From a virus (lineage: Duplodnaviria; Heunggongvirae; Uroviricota; Caudoviricetes), in IMG/VR virus record IMGVR_UViG_2671181127_000013, positions 1 to 37,174 of that record: a DNA stretch of 37,174 bases. One strand, given 5' to 3'. The notes beneath the pieces are model-generated. The model searched no databases. It had not been told where the DNA came from and saw nothing but the letters and a program-made list of their open reading frames with translations. The translations under genes and the position numbers were made by a program. Below are positions 13,449 through 16,100 of the stretch, piece after piece; positions within the stretch are counted from its first letter, which is position 1; each line of letters opens with the position of its first letter.

Positions 13449-13622
13449 TTATGGCATGTTCTGGTTGTTCTGTTGTGCAGACTTCTGACTGATTTTTTCA
13501 GCGGCGCGCTCGTCAATTTTTCGCTGAAAATAATTTCTGATAACACTGTAACCGCCGCTGATCAGATACAGCGCGCAGACGGCAGTACAGAAATACAGCA
13601 TGATCTGATGAATGAATAACAT
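13449..13622 (-). CDS. Small single-pass membrane protein (57 aa), function unknown
   Basis: ATG at 13622 with GAGGTGA SD; one hydrophobic helix then basic/polar tail; not part of canonical P2. Confidence 0.4.
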   Translation of the reverse strand: MLFIHQIMLYFCTAVCALYLISGGYSVIRNYFQRKIDERAAEKISQKSAQQNNQNMP

Positions 13623-13768
13623 AATCACCTCACACAAATGATTGACATAACGATGTCTGGCGTTTTAAAAAAAATGAATAACAATAATAAACACTCTCCA
13701 TAATTCCTCTTGCGCTCCCGTCAGGTATCTTTTCCTCTCAGTCTTGCCTGCCGGGAGCCTCTTTTTTC

Positions 13769-15814
13769 TTATGCGGCGTTGCTGTTATTGATATCCACCG
13801 TCACATACTCAATCAGCACGGGGTAGGTGTCCTGGTTACTGGTGATATCCGTGATCAGCAGTTTGTCGTTATCCAGTCCTGCCGCCGGGCATTTCGCCAG
13901 ATTAAAGGCCGCCTGGGTCTGACCGTTGATGACCGGTGTCACGCTGATGCTGTTATTTCCGGCAAACCGGAACACCACGTTGTGCCAGTTATGATTAAAT
14001 GCCCCGAAGGTTCCCAGTTTTGCATTCTGTTGTTTGTGCTGCATCAGATTCAGGTTTGCGCTGTCGCTCTGGATGAAGAAGGCGGCCAGCATATCGTTTC
14101 CTGCGCTGCCTTCCAGAACAACGTTTTCAGGTAGCTGAGAAACCGGCCAGTGCAGAGCCATGGCGAAGCGGTTTTCTGCCAGCTGAACACCTTCCGGGAT
14201 TTTGAAACGAAAGGCAATTTCCCCGCCTTTCTGAAGTAATTCAGCTGCTTTACTTGCAGGCACATCGTGGGCGATTTTCCAGGCTGTTTGTTGCCCCTGG
14301 ACTTTTTCCACTCGCATGGCTTTACCGCTCTCAGCAGCAGAGTCATTTACGACGGAGGCTTTTCCATCTGCCCCTGTCCAGCCCTGTTCTTTCAGTTTCC
14401 CTTCCTGTGCGTCTGCGCGATAAGCGACGGCCGTTGTTCTTGCCGGTGATGACTGCGTACCTGCGCCCGGCTGAGGTGCAGGTGTGGAGGGCTGCGGGCT
14501 TTCCGTGGTGGTGCTGTCTGAACCGGCCGTGGCGGGAGGTACTGCGAGCACGCTGAACGGTGCGGGTGCACCTTTCAGGAAGGCGACGGTCTTCCCGGCA
14601 TGCATCAGGATCGCCGTTGCCAGGCGGTCAGAAATAATGCCGCGGCGGGCCCATGAACTGAAATGCGTGGCGCGATCTGAAGAGGTCCAGTTTCCGTTAC
14701 TACGGGATGCAGCACCGTAATAACCGGCTTCTGCCAGGTCAGGATCTTCGGCAGGCAGGTTTGTTGGCGTGTTAGCACCTTTCTCATCGGTCATCAGGGG
14801 CACAAAATAAATTTTTTGCGCTTCTTTGTTCTGATATGCACCGTAAACCACCGGGTACTGAGAGGTATATTGTTGTTTCCAGATATAGGTGGTATCGCCG
14901 CAAATCCAGGGAACAAGTGATGCGTTGCCTCCGGTGCACTGTGCAGCATATGCGCTGAGATCTGCGCGGAACTGATTCACCATGTTCAGGAATAATTGCG
15001 GGTACTGTGCGTATGTTGCTGATTTCAGATCAAACTCTCCCAGCATCCAGACCACGGATAACAGGACGTTTTTGGGGTTTTTATCCAGCGCGGCTTTTGT
15101 ACGGGTAAGCAGATCGTTATACAGCGGTTTGCCGACGCCCCACAGGGATGATTCGGCCGTTGCTCCTGAAGATTCACTGAATGCCCCCTCAGCGCCGGAA
15201 GTAAGCGCTGACCCTCCACGACAGCAAGGTACCAGGAGGATCCCTGCATTTTTCGGGATAAACGCCAGTAATTTTTTGGCAATATGTAAACCCTGTCCGA
15301 CGCAGCCATACTGACCTTTTGACAGATCGGCGTTCGGATGATTAAGGCTGCTCATATCCTGTACATCATGGAGACAGTGATCTGCCGGAATAATATCGTT
15401 ATAGGTACATGCAGCGCCGCCCGGTGTTACCGTACTGCGACGCGCTAACTGTTTAATTCGTGGATCAGGACTGTCGAATGTATCGGGTAATGGCAGCCCC
15501 TCACCGTATGCCATGCCATTGGACTGACCAGCCAGTGGCACCACATAATAAAACTCTGGCTCAGTTGTGTGTCCAGTGTCGTATCCGTCGGTAGTGCCCG
15601 GTACGGGGTTTTCCTCGCCTTCTGGTACCGGAATGGCTGATGGCAGGTCTCTGTCAGTGACCAGTGCCTGCATCAGGTAAAATGGTGCTCCCGGCTCTGA
15701 TGCTGAGACAGGTCCCCCAAGAAGTCCCCATCCTTCCCTGAGCATGGGCGCAAGTTTTTCGGCAAGTTCCTTGTTCGTCATTGCCGTCACAAGCTGATAA
15801 TGTTTCGGTACCAT
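13769..15814 (-). CDS. SASA/SGNH-family carbohydrate O-acetylesterase with DUF1737-like N-terminus (NanS-p-like moron)
   Basis: GQSN nucleophile motif (VVPLAGQSNGMAYGEG) about 100 aa in, preceded by YQLVTAMTNKELAEKL...GW...GG region resembling DUF1737; start at ATG 15814 with GGAG SD; architecture recalled from prophage NanS-p esterases. Confidence 0.65.
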   Translation of the reverse strand: MVPKHYQLVTAMTNKELAEKLAPMLREGWGLLGGPVSASEPGAPFYLMQALVTDRDLPSAIPVPEGEENPVPGTTDGYDTGHTTEPEFYYVVPLAGQSNGMAYGEGLPLPDTFDSPDPRIKQLARRSTVTPGGAACTYNDIIPADHCLHDVQDMSSLNHPNADLSKGQYGCVGQGLHIAKKLLAFIPKNAGILLVPCCRGGSALTSGAEGAFSESSGATAESSLWGVGKPLYNDLLTRTKAALDKNPKNVLLSVVWMLGEFDLKSATYAQYPQLFLNMVNQFRADLSAYAAQCTGGNASLVPWICGDTTYIWKQQYTSQYPVVYGAYQNKEAQKIYFVPLMTDEKGANTPTNLPAEDPDLAEAGYYGAASRSNGNWTSSDRATHFSSWARRGIISDRLATAILMHAGKTVAFLKGAPAPFSVLAVPPATAGSDSTTTESPQPSTPAPQPGAGTQSSPARTTAVAYRADAQEGKLKEQGWTGADGKASVVNDSAAESGKAMRVEKVQGQQTAWKIAHDVPASKAAELLQKGGEIAFRFKIPEGVQLAENRFAMALHWPVSQLPENVVLEGSAGNDMLAAFFIQSDSANLNLMQHKQQNAKLGTFGAFNHNWHNVVFRFAGNNSISVTPVINGQTQAAFNLAKCPAAGLDNDKLLITDITSNQDTYPVLIEYVTVDINNSNAA

Positions 15815-15824
15815 AGTGACTCCG

Positions 15825-16100
15825 TTATTTTTCATGAGTGTTCATTCGTGCTGTCCGCTGCCGCTCCAGCCCGGCAATGGCGGCTTTATCGGCATTACAA
15901 CTGTCCAGGGCATCTACCAGTCGGTCTCCCCAGTCAGCCACATCAGCCCATATCATGTGTTGCGGCAGCACCGGTACCGGTGTCTGTCTGGTCAGACTTT
16001 CCGGCACGCTCCCGCAAATGACGCCGGTTTTCAGCGGCGCTGGCGTGTTGTTGCAGGCTGTCAGCAACATCAGCAGGGGGAGAAGTGCGTGCGCACTCAT
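15825..16100 (-). CDS. Rz1/LysC-like outer-membrane lipoprotein spanin
   Basis: MSAHALLPLLMLLTACNN lipobox signal, Pro-rich; overlaps the 3' part of the Rz-like gene in another frame. Confidence 0.55.
   Translation of the reverse strand: MSAHALLPLLMLLTACNNTPAPLKTGVICGSVPESLTRQTPVPVLPQHMIWADVADWGDRLVDALDSCNADKAAIAGLERQRTARMNTHEK

Follow-up and report, generated by a model that had tools for sequence, protein, structure and literature searches.

Why does an enzyme that has hitherto been treated as a metabolic 'moron' of lambdoid phages, linked to enterohaemorrhagic Escherichia coli (EHEC), sit stably in the structural late operon of a P2-like phage? The question is raised by a stretch of 37,174 nucleotides (nt), positions 1 to 37,174 of IMG/VR record IMGVR_UViG_2671181127_000013 and here called the window, which is an almost complete P2-like prophage with ogr, D, tail, baseplate, head and replication genes, Cox/C and an integrase gene. 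Between its Rz1/LysC spanin gene and the tail completion gene R lies a module of two genes, a nanS-p-type gene for a predicted sialate O-acetylesterase and a small DUF1378 gene. We find that this module is a long-standing accessory part of a group of P2-like (Peduoviridae) phages of E. coli. The best overall explanation, which we hold to be probable, is a late-expressed, lysis-released and possibly capsid-tethered sialate O-acetylesterase module of P2-like phages.

An intact NanS-p gene between the lysis and tail genes

The large gene and its domains are arranged as follows.

13769..15814, minus strand: nanS-p-type gene, 681 amino acids (aa), stop codon at 13769-13771 (open reading frame (ORF) list, Pfam, PHROG, PDB matches, RefSeq start in L001)
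15644..15814, minus strand: N-terminal DUF1737 domain (N-domain), aa 1-57, of a P2-specific subtype (Pfam, domain identities)
15566..15643, minus strand: linker 1, aa 58-83, Pro/Glu/Gly-rich, predicted to be disordered (predicted local distance difference test, pLDDT, <50 for residues 48-83) and unconserved between lineages
14603..15565, minus strand: SGNH/SASA catalytic domain, aa 84-404, with Ser98 in GQSN and His384 in THFSS (3PT5 match)
14438..14602, minus strand: linker 2, aa 405-459, Pro/Ser/Thr-rich, with an SSP motif at aa 455-457 (pLDDT <50 for residues 416-457)
13772..14437, minus strand: lectin-like jelly-roll domain DUF6645, aa 460-681 (PF20350, 6YP6, beta-sandwich in the AlphaFold2 (AF2) model with pLDDT 80-94)

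The longest ORF spans 13769..15835 on the minus strand and encodes 688 aa when counted from its first ATG. Translation probably begins at the ATG at 15814, which a GGAG precedes by 6 nt and the Rz1 stop codon by 10 nt. The RefSeq start in a 99.8%-identical E. coli chromosome (L001) likewise gives 681 aa, and a gene starting at the upstream in-frame ATG at 15835 would run into the Rz1 stop. Pfam matched DUF1737 (PF08410) to aa 11-60 of the 688-aa form with 31.3 bits (cut-off 24), and the gene product also matched SASA (42 bits) and DUF6645 (PF20350, 135.9 bits) as well as, from end to end, phrog_143 in PHROG. Searches of solved structures with phmmer aligned aa 84-404 with the chromosomal NanS/YjhS (3PT5, E 3.5e-118) and aa 460-676 with the lectin-like C-terminal domain of NanS-p (6YP6, E 8.9e-60). 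All of the SGNH blocks of 3PT5, namely GQSNA, RGGSAF, MQGEFD and SHFS (PMC10792757), were intact in the window protein (GQSN 96-99, RGGSA 199-203, LGEFD 258-262, THFSS 383-387). The AF2 model, built on an alignment of 19 homologues, was mediocre overall (mean pLDDT 66); in it the two linkers, at about 48-85 and 416-457, are disordered and the C-terminal beta-sandwich is predicted with confidence.

E-values of 1e-27 to 1e-118 for the assignments of the two genes rule out chance, and the placement of the proteins in the NanS-p and DUF1378 families is secure; NCBIfam held no model matching either of them. From its domain matches the large gene is predicted to encode an intact three-domain sialate O-acetylesterase of the NanS-p family. 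An earlier first-pass annotation, made from the nucleotide letters alone, had noted a 681-aa ORF with a GQSN motif after a DUF1737-like region, which the ORF list, Pfam and the GQSN at aa 96-99 confirm. It had read the protein as a NanS-p-type carbohydrate de-O-acetylase with DUF1737 and SASA domains and had proposed Pfam as the check; the SASA and DUF1737 scores given above support this reading, to which DUF6645, unnamed there, is added.

A module shared by diverged P2-like lineages

The flanking genes that define the junction are the following.

15825..16034, minus strand: Rz1/LysC o-spanin gene, upstream flank, embedded in Rz at 15943-16395 (Pfam LysC, PHROG Rz-like spanin, RefSeq in L001)
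12966..13433, minus strand: gpR tail completion gene, downstream flank (PF06891, 137 bits; phrog_65, tail terminator)

Rz1/LysC, Rz, lysozyme and holin genes lie upstream of the module and gpR and gpS downstream (Pfam, PHROG), and the flanking order, O-N-M-L-X-holin-endolysin-Rz/Rz1 ... R-S, is that of the Peduoviridae O operon (Pfam, PHROG, RefSeq and the P2 reference). In P2, lysC overlaps R, and both genes are assigned in the P2 record, together with S, to the 'O operon'. Among sequenced phages the nearest are Klebsiella ST16-OXA48phi5.4 and Enterobacter phiT5282H (69-73% nt identity), and in both of them the spanin genes lead directly into R with nothing between; in the Klebsiella phage the Rz1 stop abuts the R ATG and the junction reads ...AGGAGCCATAAATG. 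Since the lysC/R junction is empty in the P2, Klebsiella and Enterobacter genomes, the module is accessory relative to them. The position between Rz/Rz1 and R, and the absence of such genes from P2, had been seen correctly from the letters, and the comparison with relatives lacking the insert that had been recommended gave the same answer in all three phages. Inspection of the junctions by eye for short direct repeats or insertion scars revealed nothing convincing.

Within E. coli, at least four diverged P2-like lineages have a NanS-p gene at the lysC/R junction. The exact prophage region of the window was present in 12 of 5,426 complete genomes. In the NCTC9112-type lineage the order is lysC, a 656-aa NanS-p, a 54-aa DUF1378 protein and R, the R gene being about 79% identical in nucleotides to that of the window. 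The ST131-type lineage (JJ1886 and the isolated phage vB_EcoM-569R5) has lysC, a 625-aa NanS-p and R, without DUF1378 and with a different endolysin, and its region was found in 375 of the 5,426 genomes when a coverage of >=80% was required. A sibling lineage, L132 (NanS-p protein P0037), shares the synteny of the window. In total, about 400 of the 5,426 genomes, roughly 7%, have NanS-p at this junction; the figure is the sum of 375, 12 and roughly 13 genomes, the last group being inferred from R-gene matches with one case verified. All 35 loci recovered by a scan of IMG/VR with the P2-type N-domain had the context gpO-gpN-gpM-gpL-lysis-[NanS-p]-(DUF1378)-R-S. A scan of genome contigs with exact peptide patterns yielded 5 loci only, lambdoid copies in E. 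albertii and Escherichia sp. and chromosomal NanS-like genes in Proteus and a Bacillota metagenome-assembled genome, and says little on taxonomic spread.

The window and L132 are 75-90% identical over the whole late region with no break at the module, which therefore predates their split. The doubt of the first-pass annotation that such genes are standard P2-like cargo is thus not borne out, as several diverged Peduoviridae lineages carry them. No paper on NanS-p in P2-like phages came up in a literature search; NanS-like phage paralogues of the ST131 strain EC958 receive a brief mention in one article (PMC5425062). NanS-p is newly described here in P2-like phages, the family itself being already known. 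Two ST131-type loci (L034 5019-5879 and L039 7001-7861) have an identical in-frame internal deletion in nanS-p, the 286-aa product of which joins the last third of the lectin domain to the N-domain and the initial half of the catalytic domain.

Exchange of the enzyme part with lambdoid prophages

An alternative explanation is that the module is a recent lysogenic-conversion moron from a lambdoid (Stx-type) prophage, with which the host feeds on O-acetylated sialic acids and which has no part in the virion. This origin would fit the empty site in P2 and in the Klebsiella and Enterobacter relatives, and lambdoid NanS-p enables growth on 5-N-acetyl-9-O-acetylneuraminic acid (Neu5,9Ac2) and de-O-acetylation of mucin (PMC8065619). 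Many of the carrier strains are Shiga toxin-producing E. coli with several nanS-p copies each, in up to 3 places per genome. The strongest similarity to lambdoid phages is confined to a core of the module.

13564..15545, no strand assigned: stretch of about 2 kb, about 95% identical to a lambdoid nanS-p/DUF1378 module (Megablast matches H43-H46, 93-94%; sliding identity against L002)

The lambdoid counterpart is a 933W-like (Sepvirinae-type) prophage found in strain 2012EL-2448 and three others; the counterpart prophage L002 shares 94-96% identity with the Sepvirinae phage POCJ13 in portal and terminase. The breakpoints are sharp and fall at the start of the catalytic domain (aa about 84) and at about codon 20 of the DUF1378 gene. 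Accordingly divided by domain, the amino acid identities of the window protein were as follows.

Window against lambdoid allele P0012/P0003: N-domain 34-38%, catalytic domain 95-97%, C-terminal domain 96-97%
Window against P2-borne copies (NCTC9112 and ST131 types): N-domain 50-56%, catalytic domain 69-72%, C-terminal domain 32-46%
Window against lambdoid alleles generally: N-domain 34-45% (comparison of the N-domain only)

The lambdoid allele that shares the catalytic and C-terminal parts of the window has an N-domain of lambdoid type C and a 933W-like portal and terminase. The nearest non-lambdoid relative of these two domains is the P2-borne P0037 of L132 (85% and 71%), a relationship that hints at export out of the P2 lineage, and the smooth 75-90% identity with L132 suggests that the module is native to that lineage. 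The synonymous divergence (dS) from L132 was 1.65-2.0 in the N-domain and catalytic domain as against 0.45-0.75 in the flanks. The elevated values imply an allele replacement somewhere, so that inheritance was not purely vertical, a point that counts against our explanation. The identity to L132 and the elevated dS thus point different ways as to the direction of the exchange between P2-like and lambdoid phages. The earlier view of the module as an acquired insert stands in part: the catalytic and C-terminal part was recently exchanged with a lambdoid copy, whereas the N-domain is P2-specific and the module has diverged, in step with the backbone, from that of L132.

We also examined the ST131-type lineage (L021-L045, IMG/VR), where the catalytic domain is 85-100% identical between loci and the flanks 95-100%, a spread that indicates repeated gene conversion with other nanS-p copies of the host as donors. 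Across 11 P2-like loci, N-domain identity correlated with that of backbone genes (Spearman 0.41-0.77) as opposed to 0.09-0.15 for the catalytic domain; the pairs are not independent and the coefficients are descriptive only. As judged from these alignments, the catalytic and lectin parts are shown to recombine with lambdoid nanS-p copies of the same host, the N-domain apparently staying with the backbone. Two NanS-p variants in the databases, P0047 (730 aa) and P0052 (638 aa), have internal tandem duplications of about 90-110 residues in the catalytic domain, which may be recombination products of paralogous copies or assembly artefacts.

A constrained N-domain subtype specific to P2-like phages

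The N-domain of the window protein has the P2-subtype signature SEPGAPFYLMQA at aa 39-50. A motif common to all P2-borne N-domains is SEPGxP[F/W]YLMQA, with the minor variants YEPG, SAPG and TAPG, in place of which lambdoid N-domains carry AGYGAEFIQ, AITPYTLMQ, SYTDDGAALIQ or YDDNGMKIIQ. The P2-type subtype was never met in lambdoid contexts among the copies compared. With 31.3 bits against DUF1737 in Pfam, compared to 65.4 for a lambdoid copy, the window N-domain represents a divergent subtype, and its DNA had no detectable relative in the 5,426 E. coli genomes beyond the 12 carriers. The ratio of nonsynonymous to synonymous substitutions (dN/dS) against L132 was 0.034 for the N-domain, 0.053 for the catalytic domain, 0.054 for gpR and 0.068 for gpN. 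The N-domain is under strong purifying selection, constrained in the same manner as the catalytic domain, gpR and gpN.

These data speak against the lysogenic-conversion alternative. Strong purifying selection on the N-domain is hard to explain if the esterase alone matters, the N-domain DNA lacks a lambdoid counterpart in the genomes searched, and several diverged P2-like lineages share the module, with P2-specific N-domains, the module having diverged in step with the backbone. We therefore consider a recent moron of this kind improbable. A feeding benefit that arises when part of the population lyses would nevertheless agree with the explanation that we prefer, that of a late-expressed module of the P2-like phages.

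An exhaustive phmmer search with the 57-aa N-domain gave 9 matches, five short ones of which were inspected and are frameshifted or truncated fragments of P2-borne NanS-p, and thus provided no evidence for stand-alone P2-type DUF1737 proteins. A word-indexed search with the 90-aa N-terminus, a query too short for this method, found one fragment only. Among the fetched loci, 15 (e.g. L093 754-2808 and L115 9695-11746; protein P0092) encode a NanS-like subfamily with SASA and DUF6645 in which an unrelated N-terminus of about 110 aa (MSDSKWKMLSAMPGEF...) replaces DUF1737. These genes sit directly after tail-fibre-assembly and resolvase/invertase genes. The subfamily suggests that the NanS-p enzyme part can couple to other N-terminal modules.

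The proximity of this subfamily to tail-fibre-assembly and invertase genes also bears on a second alternative, in which the esterase is borne on the tail or baseplate and deacetylates the host's own glycans (O-antigen or a K1-type polysialic acid capsule) to expose a receptor. The window gene directly precedes the tail completion genes R and S, it is common to a P2-like phage group, and the literature contains the suggestion that NanS-p helps in gaining access to receptors (PMC8065619). However, Pfam and PHROG detected no tail-fibre, baseplate-adaptor or attachment, or beta-helix domain, the N-domain is instead a DUF1737, which binds the capsid in gp84 of phage phi24B, and the prophage has its own complete fibre and baseplate set besides. 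With the sialate-specific NanS the catalytic domain shares about 60% identity, and nothing links the carrier strains with sialylated surfaces. We consider a tail-borne esterase very improbable. A tail depolymerase common to the phage group had been named at the outset as the finding that would overturn the esterase-moron view; the gene is indeed common to the group, while its Pfam and PHROG matches are not those of a tail depolymerase.

Is the N-domain a capsid adaptor?

A virion role for DUF1737 has recently been described. By cryo-electron microscopy and proteomics, phi24B gp84, a NanS-p, is a virion protein; its DUF1737, folded into one helix and three antiparallel strands, forms a hexamer that, by means of a loop bearing Tyr42, closes the central pore in the flat hexons at the facet centres of the T=9 capsid, and cleavage at SSP-containing linkers later frees the enzyme part (bioRxiv 10.64898/2026.04.10.717836). 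Because DUF1737 was shown to bind capsids, the likely role of the module in P2-like phages shifts towards the phage's own biology. A constrained, lineage-specific DUF1737 is kept while the enzyme part is freely swapped, which is what an adaptor matching its own capsid would look like. By analogy with phi24B, we estimate the chance that the P2-specific subtype tethers the enzyme to the P2-type capsid as even at best, and probably slightly lower. With somewhat greater doubt, we put forward the fuller proposal that DUF1737 is an interchangeable capsid adaptor, that active esterase and lectin domains are displayed on T=7 gpN capsids and that the payload is traded at the boundary between adaptor and enzyme. 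The SSP motif in linker 2 recalls the SSP linkers proposed as processing sites in phi24B gp84.

A comparison of N-domain types with major-capsid-protein types in lambdoid phages gave partial support: YYZ-2008, BP-4795 and L002 fit the expectation while phage 434 did not. YYZ-2008 and BP-4795 are 98% identical in the N-domain and 99% in the major capsid protein and only 71% in the catalytic domain, whereas BP-4795 and POCJ13 share the catalytic domain (97%) and neither the N-domain nor the capsid protein.

Several observations weigh against tethering. The N-domain of phage 434, which has a lambda gpE head, is 85-87% identical to those of YYZ-2008 and BP-4795 although the capsid proteins are unrelated in sequence. 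The anchor loop of the window protein is GGPVSASEPGAP as compared to STAGYGAEF in phi24B, with no aromatic residue at the position equivalent to Tyr42, and the AGYGAEF loop of phi24B is replaced by SEPGxP[F/W]Y throughout the P2-type N-domains. The T=7 shell of P2 is without facet-centre hexons, the sole binding place in phi24B. The N-domain diverges much faster than gpN (63% versus 92% identity), and its AF2 prediction (strand 6-11, helix 14-26, strands 30-32 and 45-50) has a low pLDDT of 46-65. The breakpoints of the exchanged stretch coincide with the limits of sequence homology, and neutral homologous recombination alone could yield the mosaic.

Expression and the DUF1378 gene

The downstream part of the module consists of a spacer and the small gene.

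13623..13768, minus strand: AT-rich spacer of 146 nt between nanS-p and the DUF1378 gene, 93-98% identical to lambdoid module L002
13449..13622, minus strand: DUF1378 gene, 57 aa (PF07125, 94.8 bits; phrog_494; hydropathy; homologue alignment)

The DUF1378 gene is preceded by AGGTGA and ends 15 nt before the R start codon. About 24 N-terminal residues of its product are hydrophobic (19-residue Kyte-Doolittle means of 1.4-1.85) and are followed by a charged tail; the protein has a single N-terminal transmembrane helix and aligns with lambdoid and P2b homologues. The small single-pass membrane protein with a strong Shine-Dalgarno sequence of the first-pass annotation is thus recovered by AGGTGA, PF07125 and hydropathy. 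In both phage types DUF1378 is inherited and transferred together with nanS-p; it is missing in the ST131-type lineage, which shows that it is dispensable.

A third alternative is that the esterase and DUF1378 form an accessory lysis pair that modulates lysis through de-O-acetylation of the envelope or through holin timing. The module adjoins the holin, endolysin and spanin genes in both lambdoid and P2-like phages, and DUF1378 resembles many holin modulators in being a small single-pass membrane protein. Yet the ST131-type lineage has no DUF1378, the enzyme bears a lectin domain and is closely related to a sialate esterase, and there is no export signal by which it would reach the envelope before lysis. 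The position is not conserved either, the module being upstream of the lysis genes in lambdoids and downstream here. We regard this pair as the least probable of the explanations, and scarcely credible.

The search for signals of transcription identified neither sigma-70-like promoters nor intrinsic terminators on the coding strand at 13434-15835, in a consensus scan that could miss atypical promoters; the promoter and terminator totals for the region equal the expectation from shuffling, and the spacer at 13623..13768 had no promoter-like or terminator-like site on the coding strand. The module begins 10 nt past the Rz1 stop and ends 15 nt ahead of the R start. Because it is without a promoter and terminator of its own, the module is not a classical moron, contrary to the label first given to it and to the lysogenic-conversion alternative, and would be read through with the capsid, lysis and tail completion genes instead of being expressed on its own in the lysogen. 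The earlier suggestion of expression with the lysis and tail genes fits the position, as inferred from the tight spacing and the lack of an own promoter. Late promoters of P2 typically have a TGT-N12-ACA dyad. This pattern had 8 matches in the window, no more than expected by chance, and none within 13434-15900.

20770..20787, no strand assigned: TGT-N12-ACA dyad, candidate Ogr-type late-activator site (pattern search; divergent O/P intergenic region)

From its location, this dyad is a candidate late-activator site of the operon that would transcribe the module.

Under the explanation that we favour, a late-expressed module of the phage, the two genes would be transcribed only in lytic growth, inside the capsid-lysis-tail-completion 'O operon'. 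For the lambdoid phages, nanS-p expression is known to go up upon prophage induction (PMC8065619; PMC10462455). As the nanS-p product has no signal-peptide-like N-terminus, the esterase would be released only when holin, endolysin and spanin lyse the cell. Once it is outside, its Ser98 and His384 would strip O-acetyl groups from sialic acids, such as Neu5,9Ac2 on mucins, and the lectin domain may direct the enzyme to glycans. We propose this activity because those of lambdoid NanS-p and chromosomal NanS have been tested; both cleave the ester bond of the 9-O-acetyl group in Neu5,9Ac2 and remove O-acetyl groups from mucin glycans (PMC8065619). If tethered to the capsid, as in phi24B, the esterase would travel with the virions into mucus.

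Other features of the prophage

Two Rfam matches above the gathering score were found in the early/immunity region, a C4 antisense RNA (30319-30406, minus strand, 82.1 bits) and, adjoining it, the Hfq-binding small RNA isrK (30442-30516, minus strand, 64.5 bits). The C4 match may mean that a P2-like prophage has an antisense element of immunity in the style of P1/P7. Two overlapping small ORFs (24740-25117 and 25114-25488, minus strand), located between the portal and replication genes, correspond by size and position to an HVO_A0114-family DNA-binding protein and a TumE-family toxin in L001; the pair at 24740-25488 looks like a toxin-antitoxin cargo pair. Two Hok/Gef-family toxin genes (about 1-141 and 473-613, minus strand, according to the L001 annotation) are located between serS and ogr and fall just outside the ogr end of the prophage. 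The longest ORF of gpS (12338-13084, minus strand, 248 aa) shares 119 nt with the 3' end of R; its true start is probably internal, since the RefSeq product of 214 aa begins within this ORF.

Implications and comparison with known systems

P2-like prophages with NanS-p are widespread in E. coli, the pandemic ST131 clone included, and each phage type retains a DUF1737 subtype of its own, the enzyme part being what phage families trade with one another. With P2-like phages as a small and genetically simple system, a benefit to the host from feeding on sialic acid and a role in the virion as a mucus-active decoration become directly testable against each other. Should the adaptor proposal be true, about 7% of E. 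coli genomes would contain prophages that give rise to virions with a mucus-modifying enzyme on their surface, and the payload would be traded between myovirus and podovirus prophages, each keeping the adaptor that fits its head. Should the virion role fail, the gene would merely be another NanS-p allele in a different prophage backbone.

Among known systems, the window protein most resembles the NanS-p of lambdoid and Stx phages (933W L0105/933Wp42; phi24B gp84, vb_24B_21), with which it shares the DUF1737-SASA-DUF6645 architecture, intact catalytic blocks, a 6YP6-like C-terminal domain, a downstream DUF1378 gene and a placement among late genes. It differs in that the lambdoid gene is located between Q/stx and the holin gene S, the usual context of NanS-p and not a defining property of the protein, whereas the window gene is at the lysC/R junction of a P2-like myovirus. 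The N-domains are only 34-45% identical, with the loop SEPGxPFY in the window as against AGYGAEF. Chromosomal NanS (YjhS, 3PT5) is homologous to the catalytic domain over its full length and has the GQSN, RGGSA, GEFD and HFS blocks in common with it, but is a single-domain protein of about 330 aa without DUF1737 or a lectin-like C-terminal domain and is not phage-borne. The NanS-like gene of ST131 (JJ1886 P423_RS04670; vB_EcoM-569R5) has the same lysC/R junction, architecture and P2-type N-domain; its product is, however, only 64% identical overall and 32-33% in the C-terminal domain, and its locus has no DUF1378 gene and an M15 peptidase endolysin. By analogy, a working likeness may also exist to capsid decorations that bind mucus glycans, such as the N-domain of phi24B gp84 and T4 Hoc, which is discussed in the phi24B preprint, although the capsids differ (T=9 in phi24B, T=7 in P2) and so does the anchor loop.

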